Shown in pieces: positions 4,025-37,158 of a stretch of 42,267 bases of DNA. The position numbers were made by a program, and so were the translations under genes. The DNA comes from a virus (lineage: Duplodnaviria; Heunggongvirae; Uroviricota; Caudoviricetes). Where the stretch lies: the IMG/VR virus record IMGVR_UViG_2541047698_000018, one strand, 5' to 3'. The notes below the pieces were generated by a model that was given only the letters and a program-made list of their open reading frames with translations, did not search any database and was not told the origin of the DNA. How positions within the stretch are numbered: the first letter of the stretch is position 1; each line of letters opens with the position of its first letter.

Positions 4025-4686
4025 GCTCCTACATCAAAACCACTGATGAATTCGTTATCCATATCAAAACCAAAAAATTTTGAGCCTTCCGATGGGGTTT
4101 CCACCGAAGGTGTTTCAATGCCACCCGCCCATACCCCGGCGGCTTTTACTGTGAGATACCCCTGTTTAATTGCCGCAATTAACTCACGCGATACATCTGA
4201 AATATCAGTATCAGGAAAGACCCAGACCGATATCGTCATGTCCTGGTTATCGACTATCTGCATTCGCAGCCCGGATCCTGCTGTTGCAGCGTCAAGAATT
4301 GCCGGAAGCGAATCATTCCGTCCATCCCAGTTATTAATCGCAATCTTCGCTTTAAGAATGACACGATAAGTTTCATCGCTGAGATACATGTATCCTGAAT
4401 CAGGATCGTATGGTCCCTGCCATACCCCCTGATCATATCCAAGCCCGTCGGTATCCCAGCTGAAATAGACACCTGAGATAGGCTGGCTGACAACACGGCT
4501 ACGTCCGATCCACAATCCAAGAATGTCAAGTTGCACACCAACCGCAGAGTCAATATCAAATGCAGTAATCAGCCCTCTGGTGGCAGCCGCAACATCAATA
4601 AGTGGCCGGGTCATCAGATCAACATGCGCAAGAAATTTAGGTTTGGTGGCGTGGTAGTTCGTGATTAGTTCGGTGTATTTGCTCAT
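4006..4686 (-). CDS. Baseplate/tail protein (YmfQ / Mu gp48-like position)
   Basis: 226 aa between J-like baseplate gene and fibre gene. Confidence 0.5.
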
Positions 4687-6235: not shown

Positions 6236-6987
6236 CAGTTTACCCCGTCGGTACTGCTTCCACCGCGCTGAACACCGCCATGAGTGTGCGTATCATCGAT
6301 TGGCTTGCCGTTAGCCTTCACGCTACCCAAAAACTCAACAGCACCAGTGATTTTTGAAGCCACACCAGAAACAACAGACCCCACCATGCCCCCCATCCAG
6401 GTTAACAGGCCATGAATGGTTACTTTCTCAGAAAAATCAGCCAGAGGGGCAACCACATCAAGACCACCCGGGGCGACAATTTTAATTTTCCGGGTATCAG
6501 GATTAAGATCAAAATAGGTGCTGCCGTCGTCACTACGCAACTGTGTGGCACTGGTATTAATACCGCTAATCTTCCTCGCCTGCGACTGGGGACCGACAAT
6601 ACAAAACGCATCCGATAAATCATGCATTCTGTCATCGACCGGCTCCTGTATCCCACCGCTCTGCCACCAGAAATCAATACAACGATCGGCAAAAACGACA
6701 AGACACTCATCCCCGGCTTTAACCGGAAAAGTCAACGTACAGCCTCCGCCGCGCGGAAATACCACAGGCACATCCACCAGCAACGGGTAATTTTTGGTAA
6801 TGCGGTTACCGTCGTTATCCTTTTCAACCGAACGGATAGCTGGCTGCACAACCGCCGTCACCGCGTCGGGATCGAATGACTGAACAATGCCAGGCAAGGC
6901 GACACGGATCTGGTTCTTTGTTGTTTCCCGTTCAGATTTGAATGTTTCGGCAAGGTCGCCGCTGCGGGTCTGGTCAGATACTGCCAT
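6235..6987 (-). CDS. Baseplate spike/assembly protein (V-like)
   Basis: 250 aa, Gly-rich C-terminus; position matches Mu gp45. Confidence 0.5.
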   Translation of the reverse strand: MAVSDQTRSGDLAETFKSERETTKNQIRVALPGIVQSFDPDAVTAVVQPAIRSVEKDNDGNRITKNYPLLVDVPVVFPRGGGCTLTFPVKAGDECLVVFADRCIDFWWQSGGIQEPVDDRMHDLSDAFCIVGPQSQARKISGINTSATQLRSDDGSTYFDLNPDTRKIKIVAPGGLDVVAPLADFSEKVTIHGLLTWMGGMVGSVVSGVASKITGAVEFLGSVKANGKPIDDTHTHGGVQRGGSSTDGVN

Positions 6988-28437: not shown

Positions 28438-28638
28438 TTACGCCTTTTGTCTAGCTGTCACTTCCTGAAAAAGCTTTTCTATCGCACGTACTGTAGAAAA
28501 GCGAGGGTCAGAATGAACCCCGGTAAGAAGCCGACTAATAGAAGACTGCTTCACGCCTGCAATTTCGGCAATTTGGTTTTGGGTATACCCTGAATCAATC
28601 AAGCTTTTGACCATCTCTTGTGGTGTTAGTCCGGACAT
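28438..28638 (-). CDS. Cro-like HTH regulator
   Basis: 66 aa; YTQNQIAEIAGVKQSSISRLLTG helix-turn-helix; divergent from cI; GGAG Shine-Dalgarno. Confidence 0.65.
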   Translation of the reverse strand: MSGLTPQEMVKSLIDSGYTQNQIAEIAGVKQSSISRLLTGVHSDPRFSTVRAIEKLFQEVTARQKA

Positions 28639-28779
28639 ATTTAAGTCTCCACTTTCGTCTATAGCGCAAATTTATACGAAAACGGATTATTCAGCAATAC
28701 AGCAATTCTATGCCATCCTGGATTAAAATATCCGATAACGCATAATCACCGTCCCTGTATACAACATGGATGAATCCAA
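28639..28779. promoter_or_regulatory. Divergent cI/cro promoter-operator region (OR-like)
   Basis: 141-bp gap between divergent genes; minus-strand TTGCTG...TATAAA before cro; motif AACGCATAAT at 28737-28746 recurs beyond cI. Confidence 0.45.
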
Positions 28780-29454
28780 ATGATTGATACTACCGATATC
28801 CTTTCTCAAAACATCAAGTACCTGATGGACAAAGCCAAGATAAGCTCGATAACTGAGCTGGCACGTCGGTTACAGCTGAACCAACCAACGCTACACAGGC
28901 TGGTATCAGGAGAGGTGAAAGATCCGAAATACGCAACGTTAAAGCAGATCGCCGACTACTTCCACGTGTCACCAATAGACCTGGCAGAAAGGAGCCTTCA
29001 AGAAATGGAGAAAGAGGACGCGACAGGTATAAAAACGTATATTTCTCTTAGGTTTAATAAAGTACCTGTTTTGGGAAACACTCAGCTAGGCGTTGGAGGA
29101 CTTTGGAGCGACACCCAATATTCAGTAGGTAGCAGTGATGGTTTCATATACTGGCCGACAAAGGATGAAGATGCATACGCCCTGAAATGTGTTGGTGATT
29201 CAATGATGCCTAGAATCAAAGAGGGTGAGTTCGTAATCGTCGAACCCAACCACGACTACACTCCTGGTGATGAAGTACTTGTGGTTACCCAGGACGGTGA
29301 GGTCATGGTTAAAACCTTCTTGTTCGAACGCGATGGCCTGTTCCATCTAATGTCTGTAAATGAAGATCATCCACCAGTCAGAGTACCACGCGAAAACATT
29401 GAAAAAATCCATTACGTGGCGGGGATCGCCAAATCCGCGCTACGCATGTACTAA
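28780..29454 (+). CDS. cI: CI-type repressor (HTH plus S24 LexA-like peptidase)
   Basis: 224 aa; N-terminal HTH; C-terminal GDSM (Ser nucleophile) and downstream Lys (VMVKTF). Confidence 0.85.
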   Translation: MIDTTDILSQNIKYLMDKAKISSITELARRLQLNQPTLHRLVSGEVKDPKYATLKQIADYFHVSPIDLAERSLQEMEKEDATGIKTYISLRFNKVPVLGNTQLGVGGLWSDTQYSVGSSDGFIYWPTKDEDAYALKCVGDSMMPRIKEGEFVIVEPNHDYTPGDEVLVVTQDGEVMVKTFLFERDGLFHLMSVNEDHPPVRVPRENIEKIHYVAGIAKSALRMY

Positions 29455-29486
29455 CCTTTACAGTCTGATAACTTACTTCTGATCAA

Positions 29487-29517
29487 ACCGCTCTCCACAA
29501 GGGCGGTTTTCTTATTT
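29487..29517 (+). terminator. Terminator after cI
   Basis: accgctc-tccacaa-gggcggt (one G-U pair) followed by tttcttattt. Confidence 0.5.
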
Positions 29518-29538
29518 GCAAAATAATTCATTTTCGCA

Positions 29539-29567
29539 TTGACACAAAATCCCATAACGCATATAAA
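29539..29567 (+). promoter_or_regulatory. Consensus sigma70 promoter (PL-like) with operator motif in spacer
   Basis: TTGACA, 17 nt, TATAAA; spacer contains ATAACGCATA; followed by CGCAT-N5-ATGCG palindrome. Confidence 0.55.
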
Positions 29568-29603
29568 TACGATATCGCATAATTAATGCGTTTTTTAATA
29601 CCA

Positions 29604-29615
29604 GCTCTTTAACAA
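29604..29615 (+). promoter_or_regulatory. boxA-like antitermination element
   Basis: GCTCTTTAACAA matches rrn/lambdoid boxA core, about 35 nt downstream of the PL-like promoter. Confidence 0.4.
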
Positions 29616-29760
29616 ACTGAACCGCGTGACAGGTAAGCCGCAGTACTCCTGGCAAAATGAAATGGCACCCGATGGGATCGAGGTAAGCGCCGAGTCCGTA
29701 TGCGTACGGTAAGCGTAGAGGACAACACCGCGACGAACTGATAAGTCACGCAAGTTGAAA

Positions 29761-29778
29761 CGCCCCGACGATGGGGCG
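29761..29778. other. GC hairpin downstream of the 189-aa gene
   Basis: cgcccc-gacgat-ggggcg perfect 6-bp stem. Confidence 0.35.
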
Positions 29779-29829
29779 CTTAGTTCCTTTAACTCTGGGT
29801 GGCCGGAAAGGTACCCATGCTTAAAGAAA

Positions 29830-30399
29830 TTACTGGTTGTAAGGATCGTAATCCGTGATTGCCTTCCCCGGATTTTCATCTTCAGCAGGCAGTCTGGCCT
29901 CTAAAGCATTTCGGTTGAACAGATAGGAAGCCCTACAGTGCGAACAAACCATATTAACGGCTCGCCCAAGGCCTGGCTTAATAACCAGACCTTCCGCTTG
30001 CAATATAGATTTTCTCTTTTGCTCGTAGCAATTGGGACAAATATAAACCGGAGATTGGTCAGTATCTGCAGAAAGCTTGCTGCGATAGACCAGAGTACCC
30101 CGCATAGGCTGGTAAAGTTCATAGCTCGCCGCTTCAGCGGCCCAGTTCTCTTGCTTTACTTTCTCATTTTCCAGTTCAACAATTTTCTCCTTAGCCGCAA
30201 TCAGCAGCTCCTGAAGCGACATTTGCTGCATCTGAACATCCATTAGCTTATCGAGTAAGGTGTGCGTCTTCTCTTTAACTGCATAGTCGACAGTCAGATT
30301 CTGAATCTCTCTTGCTGCTCCAACCGCGCCTTTAATTGCTCCTCCCACGCCGGATAACGATTCAGTTATCCGGGAAAGAATTCCTTTTTCTTCAGACAT
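29830..30399 (-). CDS. Hypothetical coiled-coil/zinc-ribbon protein, convergent with PL
   Basis: 189 aa; central heptad-like region; C-terminal CPNC...CSHC; sits at the rex-equivalent position next to cI. Confidence 0.55.
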   Translation of the reverse strand: MSEEKGILSRITESLSGVGGAIKGAVGAAREIQNLTVDYAVKEKTHTLLDKLMDVQMQQMSLQELLIAAKEKIVELENEKVKQENWAAEAASYELYQPMRGTLVYRSKLSADTDQSPVYICPNCYEQKRKSILQAEGLVIKPGLGRAVNMVCSHCRASYLFNRNALEARLPAEDENPGKAITDYDPYNQ

Positions 30400-30415: not shown

Positions 30416-30461
30416 ACTGTAGGGGTGAAGAGATATTAGACGATTTCTCACTGTAGGGGTA
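30416..30461. repeat. Two 11-bp direct repeats upstream of the 189-aa gene
   Basis: actgtaggggt at 30416-30426 and 30451-30461, 35 bp apart, 17-60 nt before the gene start. Confidence 0.5.
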
Positions 30462-30538
30462 CAAGGAGAACCACCTCGCCTGATGTGGTTAAAAGCAGGC
30501 ACTCGATGATATCCATGTAATTGCTGTGTGTAGTCTTT

Positions 30539-30564
30539 GCCCGCCGCAAATGACGGGCTTTTTT
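30539..30564 (+). terminator. Hairpin plus T-run before early-left operon (tL-like)
   Basis: gcccg-ccgcaaatga-cgggc followed by tttttt. Confidence 0.4.
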
Positions 30565-30623
30565 ATGTCTGAAAGCGCACTCGCAACAGCGCGCTCCCCG
30601 ATATGAAAAAAGGAATACAACCG

Positions 30624-30773
30624 ATGAAACCTGAACACCTCTATCGACTGACGGGGCGCGATGTTCTCCGTTATCGCCGTAAAAACTTCGATTTGATGAC
30701 CGGTCTGGCCGTTGCCACTGCGCTCGGTCTGATCATCACTTTCATTCTCCTTGTTGCGAGGACCACAGTATGA
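30624..30773 (+). CDS. Small membrane protein (49 aa), first gene of early-left operon
   Basis: Not in ORF track (<60 aa); AAGGA Shine-Dalgarno; C-terminal hydrophobic helix; stop overlaps next start (ATGA). Confidence 0.3.
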   Translation: MKPEHLYRLTGRDVLRYRRKNFDLMTGLAVATALGLIITFILLVARTTV

Positions 30774-31672
30774 GTTTAGAAACCAGTCTCGAACTTAATA
30801 ATCAACTTCTGGCACAACATAATGCGCTGCTTGAACGTCTTATCCGCACAATGGCATCAGGTATTGTTATGCATCCTGACACGATTTCACGAGTGCAGGA
30901 ATGTCGGGATACAGCAACTGAAACTGAAAATATGTCAGCGGCAATGACACTGGATGATCTGGAGTTCAGCGACGTTATCGCACTGGCTGGTTTCTACCCG
31001 GTAGCCACCCCTATCACAGAAGACATGCTGCAACGTGCTGTTGCCTACCGTGATGCTGAAGGCGATAAACGAGTAGTTCAGATTGATGCTCTCGACAGCG
31101 CATTGCAGGGCGTCAAACGAGCCAGGGCACTGCATAAACCCGCTCTTCTGGACCTGTCCCGTAACATTCTTAAGTTCTGGGACGACCTGCCAACCATCGG
31201 CGAGCGACGTGCTTTTGCCGAGCAACTACTTGATGCACCTGCAGATGGGCGTGATGAAGTTAAGCCGAAAAAGGCCAGTAACAAAGATGGAGAACGCACG
31301 GGGCCGTTTTACGTCAAAAATGTATCCGGCACAGCAGCCAGTGAACTCCACACCTTACGCAAGTTGAACGAGATGCTTAAAAAAGGCCATATCGAGATCA
31401 ACCGTGTTGAGTACCTTCAGCTGCAGGAAGAATTTGCACGCAGAGACGCAGCAAATTCCAGCCAGAATAATGACGCCAAAGATGACCATACAATTGATTT
31501 CGCGGCACTACGCAAACAAGCTGAAGGGTTGATCCTCCAGTTAGCAAAAGGGGGTTACCGGGCAGAAGCTATTGCAATTCTGGAAAAACAGGGAGCCAGG
31601 AAACTTGGTGAAGTAACGGATGAAAATCTCGCTGAAGTAATCACCCTGGCTGAAAAAGCACTGGAGGGTTAA
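30770..31672 (+). CDS. Hypothetical early protein
   Basis: 300 aa, coupled to flanking genes; no motif recognised. Confidence 0.5.
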
Positions 31673-31674
31673 TC

Positions 31675-32976
31675 ATGCCAGACGTTCATGCACAACTTTC
31701 TCCATCATCAGCGCATCGATGGATGCGCTGCCCAGGAAGTCTGGCGCTGGAGGCCACACAACCGGATAAAGAAACAACTTTTGCAATCGAGGGCACTGCA
31801 GCGCACGCGCTTGCTGAAAAAGTTCTACGAAACAGGCAAAGCCACCCGGAACACTACGCCGGATGCAATGTTTCTATGTTTCTCGGCTCATACCCCCTTC
31901 GCGAAAATCCTGATGATACATCTGGCCCACAGGTGGATGATGAAATGGTCGAAGCCGTTGGCCGGTATGTTGATACGGTCTGGACTCTTGCACAGAATAA
32001 TGAACTATTGGTTGAACAACGTGTTGATTTCTCACATATAACGGGGGTGGAAGAATCTTTCGGAACTGCCGACGGCATAATCATCGCTGGTAACGAATTA
32101 CAAATCCACGACCTGAAATATGGCAAAGGCGTCCGCATTGATGCAGAACAAAATGAGCAACTACAACTGTATGCTCTGGGTGCGCTCGAACAATTCAGCA
32201 TGCTGTATGACTTTGAGACTGTAAGATTATTTATTCACCAGCCAAGGCTCAACCACGTTTCAGAATGGTCGTTAACCGTACAGGAACTTCAGTCTTTCGG
32301 TGAACGGGCACAGGAGGCCGCAACCAGTGCGATCCTTGTTCTCAATATTGCTGAATGCGAAGGCATTGAGACACTACCGCTGGAAAACTTCATACCTGGA
32401 GAAAAACAGTGCCGCTTCTGTAAAGCAAAAGCTATTTGCACTGCCCAGAAAATGCAGCATTTACAAACAGCGGCCAGCGATTTTGAAGATCTGACAAAGC
32501 CTGTCAGCGAAATAATCACCAATGCCAGCGCACGTGTACCTCTGTTAACCATTGAGCAGCTTGCGGAGATCTATAGCCAGGCCGACTTTATTGAATCCTG
32601 GCTAAAGGCAGTACGGGACCGGGTTCACAATGAACTCAATGCCGGACATCCGGTACCGGGGTTTAAACTGGTAACAGGAAAACAAGGTAACCGGGTCTGG
32701 AGTGATGAAGAGGCAGCTCGCGCACTTCTGAAGGACCAGTTCAGGTACAAAACTGAAGAAGTATTCGACTTTAAACTTATTAGTCCCACAAAAGCCGAAA
32801 AACTTATCAAAAAGGCCAGTCCGCGCCGTTGGTCAAAAGTCGAGGCACTGATAACACGAGCTGATGGTAAACCAACCGTCGTTCCCGAGTCAGACCCACG
32901 CCCCGCACTCAATATCAACCCTATAAATGATTTCGACGACGTATCCGACGATACGCTAACCGCAGACCTCATCTGA
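31675..32976 (+). CDS. PD-(D/E)XK nuclease, Cas4/DUF2800-like
   Basis: 433 aa; N-terminal Cys (RWMRCPGS), IHDLKYGKG nuclease core, C-terminal [10 protein letters not shown] cluster. Confidence 0.7.
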
Positions 32977-32991
32977 TTTAAGGAAATCCCC

Positions 32992-33540
32992 ATGAAACTG
33001 AAGCTGAACAATGTTCGTCTGGCCTTCCCGTCTCTGTTTGAAGCTAAAACTGTAAACGGCGAAGGCGATCCACGTTTCTCCGCAGTATTTTTAATGTCAC
33101 CCAAACACCCACAACTGGAAGAAATCCGTAAAGCTATGAAGCAGGTAGCGAAGGAAAAATGGGGAGAGAAGTGGGAGCCCATTTATAACCAGCTGGAGAA
33201 AAAACTCAATCTGTGCCTGCATGATGGTGATGAAAAAGCAGAGTATGAAGGCTTCCCCGGTAATTTCTTCCTGAATGCTGCTAACAAAGCGCGCCCAGCT
33301 GTTCTTGATCGCGATCGTTCGCCACTTATTCAGGCTGACGGACGTCCCTATGCAGGGTGCTATGTAAACGCCGTTATCGATATCTGGGCACAGGACAATA
33401 ATTTCGGTAAACGCATTAATGCCTCACTCGGCGGAGTCCAGTTCCTGCGAGACGGCGATGCATTCGCTGGCGGCGGAGTGGCAAGCGCTGACGATTTCGA
33501 CGATATCAGCGAAGGTGCTGATGCTGAAGCACTAATTTAA
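32992..33540 (+). CDS. DUF2815-like ssDNA-binding protein
   Basis: 182 aa with acidic C-terminal tail (DDFDDISEGADAEALI); sits between nuclease and polymerase. Confidence 0.6.
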   Translation: MKLKLNNVRLAFPSLFEAKTVNGEGDPRFSAVFLMSPKHPQLEEIRKAMKQVAKEKWGEKWEPIYNQLEKKLNLCLHDGDEKAEYEGFPGNFFLNAANKARPAVLDRDRSPLIQADGRPYAGCYVNAVIDIWAQDNNFGKRINASLGGVQFLRDGDAFAGGGVASADDFDDISEGADAEALI

Positions 33541-33555
33541 CCCTACTTCATAGAC

Positions 33556-33574
33556 GCCCGGTTAAACACCGGGC
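33556..33574. other. Hairpin between convergent genes
   Basis: gcccggt-taaac-accgggc perfect 7-bp stem. Confidence 0.4.
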
Positions 33575-33592
33575 TACTGATTAGGCGTATAA

Positions 33593-34222
33593 TCACTCAG
33601 GAATCTTAATCTTTCTCAATTCTTTATTTAGTTCACAGATCTTTTTCTTAGACGGGAAAGTATCATACATCCAAAAACCAACAGTCTCTAAAACTATTAT
33701 CATAACCATATACACAAGATAATTTAAAAGGCCTTCATTTTGCCCTATGGAAATAATGCAGATAATAGAAAAAAGGGTAAACAGCACAAAACACAGAAAG
33801 GAAAACAGACGACTAACAATAAATAAAAAACCTGAAAAATCAACATTAATAAAAAACACTCCGTTATCTTTCTCTATATAATTCTGAAGCTTAATCAACT
33901 GATTTATATACTGTCTTTTTTCTAATCTATTGCAAATGTAAATAACATCTCTTCGGTTATAAGAGGATTGCAATTTCAGCGCATCACGAATAATTTTATC
34001 ATTTATTCTTTTTTCTATGGCACTCTTATCCTCCTCATCCAGATAACGTTCATACTTAACTAAATATAAAATTAACTTCTTGACATATTTAGGCTCTTTA
34101 TACTTATAATTAAAAATGATCTTTCTTATCCAGACTCCCATAACAATCAAACATGAAAAAATATATCCAGCTATTTTCTCCAGATGCTCTGTATGGTCAA
34201 TCAAGTATTGGATCATATGCAT
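33593..34222 (-). CDS. AT-rich multi-pass membrane protein (moron, opposite strand)
   Basis: 209 aa; Lys/Ile/Tyr-rich; N-terminal and C-terminal hydrophobic helices; antisense to replication operon. Confidence 0.5.
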   Translation of the reverse strand: MHMIQYLIDHTEHLEKIAGYIFSCLIVMGVWIRKIIFNYKYKEPKYVKKLILYLVKYERYLDEEDKSAIEKRINDKIIRDALKLQSSYNRRDVIYICNRLEKRQYINQLIKLQNYIEKDNGVFFINVDFSGFLFIVSRLFSFLCFVLFTLFSIICIISIGQNEGLLNYLVYMVMIIVLETVGFWMYDTFPSKKKICELNKELRKIKIPE

Positions 34223-34268
34223 AATTAATCTTTTAATCAGTTAATATAATAAAAACCAAGGTAAACAC

Positions 34269-36332
34269 ATGTCCAATATACTATGGGGCGACCTGGAAAC
34301 CTATTGCGAAATCCCTATTACGAACGGTACCCATGCGTATGCCGAAGGCGTTGAAGTGATGCTTTTCGCATGGGCTATCAACGACGGGCCAGTAAACGTG
34401 TGGGATATCACTGCCGGTGGTGGTATTCCACACGGCTTATACGAAGCAATCGCAGACCCTGAAACCCTGCTTTATTTCCATAACTCTCACTTCGACCGCA
34501 CCGTTCTGCGTTATGCAATGCCGCGCCTGGCACCGCCAGTCGAACGTTGGCGCGACACAATGGTGCAGGCGCTGGCGCACGGTCTCCCGGGGTCTCTGGG
34601 GGAACTCTGCGAAGTACTAGGCGTCCCGCAAGACAAAGCGAAGGACAAAGAAGGTAAAGCGCTGATCCAGCTGTTCTGTAAGCCACGCCCGAAAAACAGC
34701 AAACTGCGCCGGGCCACCAGCAAAACCCACCCGGAAGAATGGCGGCGCTTTGTTGCTTACGCCGGACTGGATATCGAGGCAATGCGCGAAGTCTATAAAC
34801 GTCTGCCGAAGTGGAATTATCAGGGGACAGAACTGGCGCTCTGGCATCGTGATCAGCAGATCAATGACCGGGGCGTCTGCATGGACGTGGAACTCGCACG
34901 CGCTGCGATCGACGCGGTAGACCAGGAACAAAAGCGCCTGGCAAAGCGTACACAGGAAATGACTGATGGCGAAGTGCAGGCAGCCACACAACGAGACGCG
35001 TTGATTAAGCACATTGTTGAATCCTACGGTGTGGAGCTACCAGACATGCAACGCAGTACTCTGGAACGTCGTATTGCCGACCCCGATTTACCATCTGCCG
35101 TGAAAGAACTGCTGGCTATCCGCCTGCAGGCCAGTACTACCAGCACCAGTAAATACAAGGCACTGATGAAAGGCGTAAGCCACGACGGGCGCTTACGCGG
35201 TACGCTACAGTTCTGCGGGGCGTCACGTACCGGTCGTTGGGCCGGACGGCTATTCCAGCCCCAGAACCTTCCCCGCCCTTCACTAAAACAGGAACAAATA
35301 GACGAAAGCATCGAAGCACTGAAAGCCGGATGTGCAGACCTGCTGTTTGACAATATCATGGAACTAACCAGTTCAGCGTTACGTGGCTGCATTATCGCGC
35401 CAACAGGCAAAAAGCTGGTGGTAAGTGACTTGTCGAACATTGAAGGCCGTATGCTGGCATGGCTGGCGGGAGAAGAATGGAAACTGAATGCATTCAGAGA
35501 GTACGACGCCGGAACGGGTCCGGACTTATATAAACTGGCGTATGCAAAAGCTTTCGATATTGCACCAGATGATGTTGATAAACACATGCGTCAGATCGGT
35601 AAAGTCATGGAACTCGGTCTGGGTTATGGTGGTGGTGTGTCGGCCTTCATCACTTTTGCACTGGTTTACGGTCTCGATCTCGACGAGCTGGCGAACGCCG
35701 CACTACCAAACATTCCCCGCGATGTTATCCGCGAGGCGAAAAGCTGGTACGACGAATCGGTTAAACGCAAGTCAACCTACGGGCTTTCTGAACGGGTATT
35801 TATCGCCTGCGACTCACTTAAACGTCTCTGGCGCCGGGCGCATCCCGCGACCTGTGATTTCTGGTACGAACTGGAGCGCACCGTCCGCACTGCAATCGCC
35901 ACACCGCAAAAAACATTGTATTGCGGTTATCTTAAAATCCGCCGCGATGGCGCGTGGCTGCGCATACAGCTACCATCCGGACGCGCTGTATGCTACCCGT
36001 CTCCGGTTATCGAAAAAGGGAATATCACCTACATGGGGGTTAACTCTTATTCGCGTAAATGGCAACGACTCAAAACCTACGGCGGAAAGCTGGTGGAGAA
36101 CATCACCCAGGCGGCCGCCCGCGACATTCTGGCCGGAAACATGCCGCTTATCGAAGATGCCGGTTACAGCATTGTGCTGACGGTACACGACGAGGTGATC
36201 ACCGAAGCACCTGACACAGAAGATTTCAACGATAAAGCGCTTTCCGCGCTTCTCTCCACTGACCCCGAATGGGCGCCCGATATCCCACTGAACGCTGGCG
36301 GTTTTGAGGCGTACCACTACAAAAAAGATTGA
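34269..36332 (+). CDS. DNA polymerase, family A, with 3'-5' exonuclease
   Basis: 687 aa; exo motif DLETY; motif [18 protein letters not shown]; motif [17 protein letters not shown]; motif C VHDEV. Confidence 0.85.
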
Positions 36333-36396: not shown

Positions 36397-37158
36397 ATGC
36401 AGGAACTAACTGAAATGCCGATCACCTATCCATACCCGAGAGAATCTTTTCCTGACTTTTTGAGGGAGTGTGGGTTCACCAATTTTTCCCACGAACAGCG
36501 TGAGACTTGTGACTGCTATCGTTTAACGAATGGCGTAATTGTTAACCTTTACACCACCCGGACCATTCAGTTTCAAGGTAACCCTCAAGAACGTCCCAAT
36601 GTTGAAACTGCAATAATGACCCATTTAGGAACGCCGCCCACGGCAACACCACTAGCCGTAGAACAGCCATCTGAGCTCCCCAAAAAGATATTCATTGTTC
36701 ACGGCCATGACCATACTGCAAAGGAGCAACTTGAGCTAATCCTTCATAAACTTGGATTACCAGACCATTTCATTTTGCAGAATACGGGAGGGACTGGACT
36801 CACCATTATTGAAGAGCTTGAACGTGAAATTGGGCAAGGACAAACTGCTACCCGTTTCGGGATTGTTCTTTTGACACCTGATGATATGGGATACTCAAAG
36901 CGCGCCGGTGAAGCAGAAATCCAACCCCGCGCAAGACAGAACGTTGTACTCGAGATGGGTATGCTTCTTTCGTCCTTAGGGCGCAGCAATGTAGCAATCC
37001 TTCAGAAACAGCACCTAGAACAGCCTTCTGATGCTAACGGGATTTTGTATCTGAATTTCAACGACCATGTACGTGAAACAGTTCCTCGTCTAGTGCAACG
37101 GTTACAAAATTCTGGTTTCGAATTTACACAAGCTCAAATAGCTAACGCTTCCTCGTAA
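36397..37158 (+). CDS. TIR-like (COG4271/PF10137-type) nucleotide-binding domain protein with unknown N-terminal domain
   Basis: 253 aa; KKIFIVHGHD, VLLTPDD, ARQNVVLEMGMLLSSLGR resemble the TIR-like family as recalled. Confidence 0.5.
   Translation: MQELTEMPITYPYPRESFPDFLRECGFTNFSHEQRETCDCYRLTNGVIVNLYTTRTIQFQGNPQERPNVETAIMTHLGTPPTATPLAVEQPSELPKKIFIVHGHDHTAKEQLELILHKLGLPDHFILQNTGGTGLTIIEELEREIGQGQTATRFGIVLLTPDDMGYSKRAGEAEIQPRARQNVVLEMGMLLSSLGRSNVAILQKQHLEQPSDANGILYLNFNDHVRETVPRLVQRLQNSGFEFTQAQIANASS

Follow-up and report, generated by a model that had tools for sequence, protein, structure and literature searches.

We describe here a conserved RNA element, a boxA followed by a folded domain, in the early-left leader of a temperate Escherichia coli phage of the Caudoviricetes (IMG/VR record IMGVR_UViG_2541047698_000018; the window is the whole stretch of 42,267 nucleotides that was analysed). 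The element, called the cassette in the following, lies on the plus strand between a promoter resembling PL of phage lambda and an operon that starts with a small membrane protein and contains replication genes. Comparison of related loci suggests that the region is the 5' leader of a repressor-controlled early-left operon and that it acts as a cis-acting, N-independent cassette for processive antitermination, a reading to which we give somewhat better than an even chance. Three observations carry it: the cassette is conserved in unrelated phages, its helices covary, and in sister phages it is exchanged at the same slot for a put RNA of the HK022 type. An initial annotation of this DNA had named two options for a leader that lacks an N gene, namely antitermination that is RNA-based or independent of N, and a small RNA (sRNA) antisense to a neighbouring 189-aa gene. 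Conservation, covariation and the exchange with put favour the first option, with the function itself read from sequence comparison; the second found no support.

The conserved cassette and its RNA fold

The elements of the cassette in the window are the following.

29604-29615, plus strand: boxA (GCUCUUUAACAA) of the ribosomal RNA (rrn) type, the 5' boundary of the conserved cassette
29624-29751, plus strand: structured RNA domain, closed by stem P1 between 29624-29630 (GCGTGAC) and 29745-29751 (GTCACGC)
29632-29634 with 29737-29739 (P1b), 29637-29641 with 29730-29734 (P2a), 29642-29645 with 29724-29727 (P2b) and 29647-29650 with 29719-29722 (P2c), plus strand: continuation of the stem
29648-29666, plus strand: near-invariant unpaired core CCUGGCAAAAYGAAAYRGC
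29670-29680, plus strand: hairpin P3a, CGAU-GGG-AUCG
29687-29716, plus strand: optional P4 domain, with P4 (29687-29690 with 29713-29716) and hairpin P4a (29696-29709)
29715-29723, plus strand: near-invariant junction GUAGAGGAY, whose AGGA pairs with UCCU at 29647-29650
29761-29778, plus strand: hairpin P5, CGCCCC-GACGAU-GGGGCG, the 3' cassette boundary in types A and B

This unit from boxA to hairpin is kept in well over 100 loci that were fetched from phages and prophages of the Enterobacterales and that belong to two unrelated phage families. A pattern of boxA, 20-45 nt and CCTGGCAAAA (exact) retrieved 76 IMG/VR contigs, and extra copies came from protein-guided searches plus two species genomes, Trabulsiella and Pluralibacter. 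Scanning genome contigs with the 19-nt core gave 35 matches, about the chance expectation for 596 Gb, and the true ones among them were those of Trabulsiella and Pluralibacter only; a relaxed 17-nt core scan of viral contigs returned mostly chance matches and one new true match, a truncated type D remnant (locus L138). Over the queried stretch, the window itself has 100% identity with a prophage in E. coli BCE049 and 99% with Escherichia phage vB_EcoM-606R2, and its cassette region is matched by 104 of 5426 complete E. coli genomes. Four divergent versions of the cassette can be distinguished. Type A is window-like and type B is close to it, type C belongs to phages of the ParB type, an unrelated family with relatives among Serratia phages, and type D to Yersinia YeP4-like phages. 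The core is invariant over all four versions, with the exception of a 2-nt deletion in L228 and L237.

The boundaries of the cassette are sharp. Conservation starts exactly at boxA, which is near-invariant over about 120 loci (variants are GCTCTTTAAAAA in L111 and GTTCTTTAACAA in L202), whereas the sequence just upstream is a mosaic: every related locus has a TTGAC-type promoter at this place, and these belong to more than 10 unrelated promoter/operator types or immunity versions. Downstream, conservation stops after P1 or, in types A and B, after P5, with a mosaic junction directly 3' of P5 and varied sequences beyond; type C has no P5. Gene order is constant, with repressor, promoter, cassette, optional inserts and then the small membrane protein and replication operon, and in the shortest loci the operon begins about 90 nt after the cassette. 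Each genome has one copy, in the left operon; a second copy was sought in the rightward (cro-primase-Q) operon and none was found.

In the window, boxA (GCTCTTTAACAA) begins 36 nt after the -10 element and has no second exact copy. As the initial annotation had noted, it is an exact rrn-type boxA, identical in 12 of 12 positions to that of the E. coli rrnB leader. RNAalifold suggested a pairing of its GCUCUUU (29604-29610) with the invariant loop AAAURGC (29659-29666) by 3+3 bp around a C.U mismatch. Since neither side varies, covariation is uninformative here; if real, the pairing would sequester boxA.

The architecture was derived by comparing the versions by eye together with single-sequence folds, and was then tested by pair counts; RNAalifold on a MAFFT alignment of all types misaligned the variable hairpins and was replaced by the hand-derived structure. 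A long irregular stem (P1-P1b-P2a-P2b-P2c) leads to a junction that holds the core, P3a, the optional P4/P4a and GUAGAGGAY. In a MAFFT alignment that was not fitted to the structure (A2), 92% of cells are paired and 11 pairs show changes on both sides, compared to 14-44% pairing and 2-4 double-change pairs in controls with partners slid by 1-3 columns. A model-fitted alignment (A6) of 59 distinct sequences, biased toward the structure model by construction, has 92.9% of cells paired and double changes in 22 of 36 pairs; its slid controls gave 2-10 double-change pairs, and none of 500 shuffles attained the observed values. P1 occurs as GCGUGAC/GUCACGC in types A and B, as GCAUGAC/GUCAUGC in type C and as GUGUGAC/GUCACAC in L202. 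P3a covaries at all four of its pairs, with 99.6% of cells paired, and reads CGAU/AUCG, GCGA/UCGC (type B) or GGUA/UACC (type C). Four of the five P4a pairs covary (CCGUA/UACGG or CCGUG/CACGG), and P2b is found as UGUG/CACA, UGUC/GACA and CAAAG/CUUUG, and as UUGCAU/AUGCAA in type D. Covariation across related prophages supports the structured leader that had been proposed from the window alone, and its 7-bp long-range inverted repeat and local hairpins are present as P1 and as P3a, P4a and P5, respectively.

Plus is taken as the folded strand because boxA and all promoters point in this direction, with the operon downstream, and because G-U cells are more frequent than A-C cells (147 vs 54). 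Consensus-structure energies do not discriminate between the strands (-29.6 for plus, -28.3 for minus), and strand choice by folding energy was discarded as uninformative, in favour of promoter and boxA orientation and the G-U counts. An element acting at the DNA level, for example an origin, is ruled out by the strand-specific conservation of Watson-Crick and G-U pairing.

Three GGTAAGC repeats had been listed as a further feature of the leader. They do occur, on the plus strand at 29632, 29682 and 29708, and three copies within 83 nt are far above chance (the window holds 9 on both strands, about 1e-4 per site). As an independent motif they did not stand, since the first and second copies bound a deletion and the second and third (GGTAAGCG) flank the P4 domain. 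The repeats have mediated natural deletions, by which L042 (6498-6622) lost P4 and L204 (6494-6594) lost the core; type D also has no P4. In L204 and in L230 (5851-5934) the invariant core is gone and boxA, P1, P5 and the downstream terminators are retained. P5 itself has no plus-strand U-tract in most loci. On the minus strand it is followed by UUUCAACUU, and it probably also terminates the 189-aa gene, which is encoded on that strand.

A core of this kind is aptamer-like, with invariant junction nucleotides within covarying helices, and could belong to a riboswitch or to a CsrA-like protein-binding junction that tunes the early operon or the lysis-lysogeny decision. GGA is conserved in the P3a loop (AGGA, CGGA, GGGA) and in GAGGA, and CCUGG is able to pair with either of two AGG motifs, which would suit such a sensor. 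We nevertheless consider it very unlikely. The cassette has no conserved terminator and no platform for sequestering a ribosome-binding site, P5 being missing in type C and mostly without U-tract, and the distance to terminators or genes varies from about 90 to more than 1000 nt. Moreover, the exchange with put points to constitutive antitermination. No Rfam family came up either: Rfam 15 gave no gathering-score match across the whole window, and a local search of 29539-29780 no match at E values up to 10. Rfam 15 also has no match on the put element of L171, so that the lack of a match does not prove that there is no prior description. In the literature on put, boxA, prophage sRNAs and DUF2800 phages we found no description of the element, a coverage that does not include the 2011 study of put-like RNAs (King et al., 2011).

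Exchange with HK022 put and the downstream terminators

The strongest available evidence for the function of the cassette is its natural exchange with put. The 80 closest relatives of the DUF2800 gene, which lies in the operon, were taken with 8 kb of upstream flank each and scanned with a covariance model of the cassette, which had no match in many of them; the putL and putR sequences were read from the HK022 genome. In 19 of the 80 sister loci (L171-173, 176, 178, 180, 182, 183, 190, 198, 201, 207, 211, 214, 215, 236, 238, 242 and 244) the cassette is replaced at the same slot by GUCGAACGGCGCGACUCUAAACCAUGCGUCGGGACCGUGGCGGGACAGGAUGUCGGCAAUACGGG, which is identical to HK022 putL at 61 of 77 positions (79%). 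In L171 put sits at 6478-6550, just after the early promoter. None of the 80 DUF2800-type loci has both elements, and the put loci have no boxA and the same downstream terminators. How precise the substitution is can be seen from L023, which carries the cassette, and L171: the two are about 90% identical through the promoter/operator to the -10 region, the cassettes themselves are unalignable, and identity returns at AGTTCCCTTTGGGGTG. Some put-bearing phages have genes for the small protein (tm56), p300 and DUF2800 that are 100% identical to those of the window. The second family, that of type C, is mixed as well, with the cassette in L249, L275 and L278, put in L301 (~4097), and boxA followed by different large stem-enclosed domains in other members. 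The put RNA suppresses intrinsic and Rho-dependent termination with no protein factor (PMC9378689). That this well-characterised, protein-independent processive antiterminator precisely substitutes for the cassette suggests that the two do the same job. The put-bearing loci are DUF2800-type, myovirus-named prophages plus one ParB-type phage and not HK022-like lambdoids.

There is also something to terminate at. Between the cassette and the first gene of the operon, almost all loci have one or more strong intrinsic terminators, in the form of GCCCC..GGGGCUCUUUUUUUU, of AAAGGCUUCGGGCCUUUU (just after the cassette) or of an RprA-like terminator, and in related loci a conserved module ending in GCCCG...CGGGCUUUUUU is found 30-110 nt before the operon. 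Depending on the locus, cassette and terminator are between about 60 and more than 900 nt apart. If the cassette affects these terminators, it must therefore do so processively and not through a local alternative hairpin. The relevant feature of the window is

30455-30568, plus strand: RprA-like module with a strong intrinsic terminator at 30539-30564 (stem + T6), about 35 nt before the first operon gene

There is no space for a further promoter between this terminator and the operon start. Early transcripts must accordingly cross P5, about 600 nt of untranslated RNA antisense to the 189-aa gene, and then the strong terminator.

The Rfam RprA model scores 50.2 bits on the module (gathering score 70; E 5e-5), and a 24-nt block (AATTGCTGTGTGTAGTCTTTGCCC) and the terminator are identical to K-12 RprA. 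The module is kept just upstream of the operon in most loci, cassette- or put-bearing alike, and types C and D lack it. An sRNA that mimics RprA and binds Hfq could arise from early transcripts that are terminated or processed. It might then be asked whether the whole region is a stand-alone, trans-acting sRNA, either as an antisense RNA of the 189-aa gene or as a long leader that ends at the RprA-like terminator. Such an RNA would have its own promoter and a 3' hairpin, and in minimal loci the unit from promoter to RprA-like terminator is about 300 nt long, with a Hfq-type terminator and the RprA seed. The antisense variant, raised by the initial annotation, fails on position: the cassette ends at 29778, the gene lies at 29830-30399 and is itself optional, and the two do not overlap. 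For both variants, P5 has no U-tract in most loci, inserts of up to 1 kb precede the RprA-like module, and types C and D have no such module at all. We regard a trans-acting sRNA as the least probable of the alternatives.

Another possibility is a leader in which only boxA matters. It would recruit the rrn-type complex of NusA, NusB, NusE, NusG and SuhB against Rho, and the fold would provide stability, a processing site or a Nus-chaperoned helix as in pre-rRNA. The full identity of boxA with its rrn counterpart speaks for this, and so does the ability of Nus factors and boxA to prevent Rho-dependent termination without N (PMC5725501). L204 and L230 keep boxA without the core, and other phages join boxA to quite different structured domains. 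However, the unit that is swapped with put is the whole stretch from boxA to P5, put handles intrinsic terminators (PMC9378689), and the terminators downstream of the cassette are strong intrinsic ones; in lambda, read-through of intrinsic terminators needs N (PMC5725501). About 35 unpaired nucleotides are near-invariant across versions that have otherwise diverged, which implies a specific partner, and past boxA no similarity to the rrn leader is detectable. We hold a leader that works through Nus factors alone to be unlikely, but the most probable of the alternatives.

Promoter, neighbouring genes and N-like proteins

The cassette is embedded in an immunity region and early operon with the following features.

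28438-28638, minus strand: cro-like gene, followed on the same strand by primase and a Q antiterminator
28780-29454, plus strand: cI-like repressor gene, divergent from the cro-like gene, with HTH and Peptidase_S24 domains
29485-29509, plus strand: intrinsic terminator ending the cI-like repressor gene (terminator scan)
29539-29567, plus strand: PL-like sigma-70 promoter, TTGACA at 29539-29544, 17-nt spacer, TATAAA at 29562-29567
29554-29592, no strand assigned: operator-like sequences, with ATAACGCATA at 29554-29563, the palindrome CGCATAATTAATGCG at 29576-29590 and AACGCAT/ATGCGTT half-sites
29830-30399, minus strand: 189-aa gene (phrog_1244), an optional insert
30603-36332, plus strand: early-left operon, encoding the small membrane protein, a 300-aa protein, a DUF2800 nuclease-like protein, DUF2815 and a 687-aa open reading frame (ORF)
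30603/30624-30773, plus strand: small membrane protein (phrog_11981) with an H-x-Y-x-L-T-G-x-D-F motif, then a membrane helix

The promoter agrees with what had been claimed for it. TTGACA-17-TATAAA has 11 of 12 consensus positions, and it was not listed by our promoter scan because its -10 element is without the conserved final T. It is the sole occurrence of TTGACA-N16-18-TATAA[AT] on both strands of the window and sits where lambda PL would, 3' of cI and co-oriented with it. A 10-mer (ATAACGCATA) and an 8-mer (CGCATAAT) are common to the promoter region and the cro/cI intergenic region, where they recur at 28735-28746; an equal number of shared 8-mers is reached by 2.7% of random window segments. 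The shared words would fit shared operators and a repressor-controlled, lambda-PL-like promoter, from which transcription is predicted to start at about 29574. The palindrome CGCATAATTAATGCG with its T6 was called terminator-like by the scan and is confined to the immunity type of the window.

No conventional N gene was found before the operon, in agreement with the initial annotation. Between promoter and 30603 the plus strand has ORFs of 49, 102 and 31 aa only, all antisense to the 189-aa gene or overlapping a hairpin, and they are absent from related loci that do not carry this gene; most related loci do not. There is no ORF inside the cassette and no conserved plus-strand ORF from cassette to operon, in the window as in related loci. 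Ten window proteins, including the first two of the operon, were scanned and gave no N-like match in Pfam or PHROG; the late genes are served by the Q-family protein of the other arm. About 10-17 kb were examined per related locus, and by BLASTP the two cassette-bearing phage families have no proteins in common within the roughly 10 kb compared.

These results bear on the possibility that the cassette is a nut-like site whose folded domain is bound by an N analogue, a phage antiterminator protein that has gone unrecognised and is encoded elsewhere. The layout of boxA plus structure is like that of lambdoid nut sites, and the P5 loop (GACGAU or GAUGAU) recalls boxB loops; P22 boxB has a GACAA loop. 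A candidate partner might be the small membrane protein, whose family (also at L002 4328-4465 and in L058 about +1276..+1497 from boxA) is the only one seen to accompany the cassette in each of the four versions, even in the type C phages, which are otherwise unrelated. This protein, however, has a membrane helix and is present in put-bearing phages too, and no N-like ORF lies in or beside the cassette even in minimal loci with less than 100 nt to the operon. In sister phages whose operon genes are identical, the protein-independent put is used, and the two families have no detectable shared proteins nearby. There is also no hairpin at boxB distance from boxA: the 5' strand of P1 begins 8 nt after boxA, and the nearest small hairpin is 55 nt away. 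We therefore hold a protein-dependent nut-like site to be quite unlikely. We also rejected the idea that the small membrane protein is a type I toxin and the cassette part of its leader; the gene overlaps the start of the next gene, with which it is translationally coupled, and its distance to the cassette varies.

Some further observations concern the surrounding genes. The 687-aa ORF, taken as a putative DNA polymerase, is the last operon gene in related loci. At 36397-37158 on the plus strand, the window encodes a protein of 253 aa whose TIR domain is of the CAP12/Pycsar-effector type (Pfam E 3e-31); this is likely an anti-phage defence gene inside the early-left operon. A direct repeat (ACTGTAGGGGT) at 30416-30426 and 30450-30460 lies just upstream of the start of the 189-aa gene on the opposite strand, is present also in L051, L011 and L029, and may be a regulator site of this inserted gene. 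Two minus-strand ORFs, 29512-29655 (47 aa) and 29595-29879 (94 aa), overlap promoter, boxA and RNA. The 47-aa ORF carries a hypothetical-protein annotation (URC08718.1 in ON470579), which is probably spurious given the conservation pattern of the RNA; cassette conservation can in this way flag spurious ORF annotations in public records. Types C and D and the related leaders L250, L252 and L254 share a second leader piece just before the first gene, UUUACCCUGCCGC-loop-GCGGNAGGYAUAAAACYACYGAGGA, that is a hairpin followed by a ribosome-binding region (L002 ~4262-4320; L058 about +372..+385 from boxA).

Proposed mechanism and comparison with known systems

Taken together, the cassette may work as follows. 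After derepression, sigma-70 RNA polymerase would initiate at about 29574 and expose boxA about 30 nt into the transcript. Here, boxA would recruit host NusB and NusE(S10) and with them the Nus complex, which would tie the 5' RNA to the elongating polymerase and shield the long untranslated leader from Rho, a protection documented for RNAs that carry boxA and work without N (PMC5725501; PMC7665894). The next ~130 nt would fold as the P1-P2 stem, whose junction would display CCUGGCAAAAYGAAAYRGC, GUAGAGGA and a small hairpin, so that about 35 near-invariant unpaired nucleotides are presented by the folded domain. Located at the RNA exit channel and in contact with the polymerase, this domain might act like the HK022 put RNA or lambda N and make the polymerase resist intrinsic terminators. 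Transcription could then pass P5, the opposing 189-aa gene, the 30539-30564 terminator and later terminators to reach the replication genes.

Several points weigh against antitermination by the cassette. The support for it is wholly comparative. By inspection, the cassette has no motifs in common with putL or putR, the cassette model has no match on the HK022 locus, and the cassette is twice as long as put, so that their equivalence is drawn from position only. The loss of the core in L204 and L230 means either that these prophages are decaying or that the core is dispensable. The window copy folds no better than shuffled sequence (z = 0.08), and the evidence for the structure rests for this reason on conservation and covariation. 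Unconstrained folding is slightly better on the minus strand, and one P2a pair is C.A on the plus strand and would be G.U on the minus strand. A trans-acting partner protein may be encoded outside the 10-17 kb examined. Finally, boxA alone may give anti-Rho activity, terminators are never fully efficient, and the fold could serve another purpose.

The same consensus boxA is found with other conserved structured domains in the leaders of L245 (5404), L246 (6257) and L247 (5425), of L250 (3709) and L254 (3529), of L252 (3932) and L253 (3429), of L233 (5641), and of L259 (3950), L263 (4353), L277 (4774) and L280 (3761). In one other boxA-linked leader, a 9-10 bp long-range helix (GUCACCCAG...CUGGGUGAC) encloses about 130 nt. 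Leader RNAs linked to boxA may hence form a wider class. To our knowledge, processive antitermination by RNA alone has been worked out in detail for essentially a single system, HK022 put. It is conceivable, at a little less than an even chance, that antiterminator RNAs of a so far unrecognised, self-sufficient class occur in temperate phages of the Enterobacterales; in these RNAs boxA would load Nus factors and a folded domain would replace N, and they would exist in several versions that are interchangeable with put as mobile cassettes. Members of this class would be the four cassette versions and at least three to four of the other boxA-linked domains (L245-247; L250/254; L252/253; L259/263/277/280). 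If this is true, such RNAs would be an 'RNA N protein' that bridges rrn-type and put-type mechanisms, and would show that nascent RNA and the host Nus machinery can jointly replace the phage N protein. They would be a new and compact system in which to study the structure of the elongation complex, and would explain how replication genes are expressed across inserts and terminators in common prophages of the E. coli, Yersinia and Serratia type. The cassette is also a portable candidate antitermination part.

Among known systems, HK022 put is the closest. It needs no protein factor and binds the RNA polymerase beta' subunit at its zinc-binding domain, where the rpoC change Y75N blocks put; the elongation complex with put has been imaged by cryo-EM. 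Like the cassette, it is located just downstream of an early PL promoter in an N-less phage, with terminators downstream, and it occupies the same slot in sister phages. In contrast to the cassette, which consists of boxA and a branched stem of ~130 nt, put measures about 70 nt, forms two stem-loops, lacks a boxA and does not depend on Nus factors (PMC9378689). The nut site of lambda, together with N, shares a boxA in a repressor-controlled early-left leader that lies 3' of cI in the same direction and has terminators to pass. The cassette differs in having neither a boxB hairpin next to boxA nor an N gene. Lambda boxA is weaker than the full rrn consensus, which the cassette has. With the rrn leader (boxB-boxA-boxC; NusA, NusB, NusE, NusG, SuhB, S4) the cassette shares the 12-nt boxA, a long-range helix after boxA, independence of N and an untranslated RNA. 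The main targets of the rrn complex are Rho-dependent termination and RNA folding; the cassette, by contrast, faces strong intrinsic terminators. A wider homology to the rrn leader was rejected; beyond boxA, the best local match, GCAAAACGAAA vs GCAAGACGAAA (10/11), is no better than in shuffled sequence (p 0.2-0.4). Similar in size is EAR, a structured RNA from the eps operons of Bacillus that acts in cis and helps transcription to pass distal terminators, but it belongs to another phylum, has no boxA and lies inside an operon, and it has no Rfam match in the cassette region. On non-rRNA transcripts, consensus boxA sites control Rho termination in the leaders of CRISPR arrays and of suhB (PMC7665894; PMC5725501). 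These sites differ in that no conserved structured domain is attached to them and that they are not phage early leaders. Thus, the cassette works like put in its position and its lack of N, its boxA resembles those of nut and rrn, and the features that define each of these systems differ from its own. It would represent a new class of cis-acting antitermination leader.

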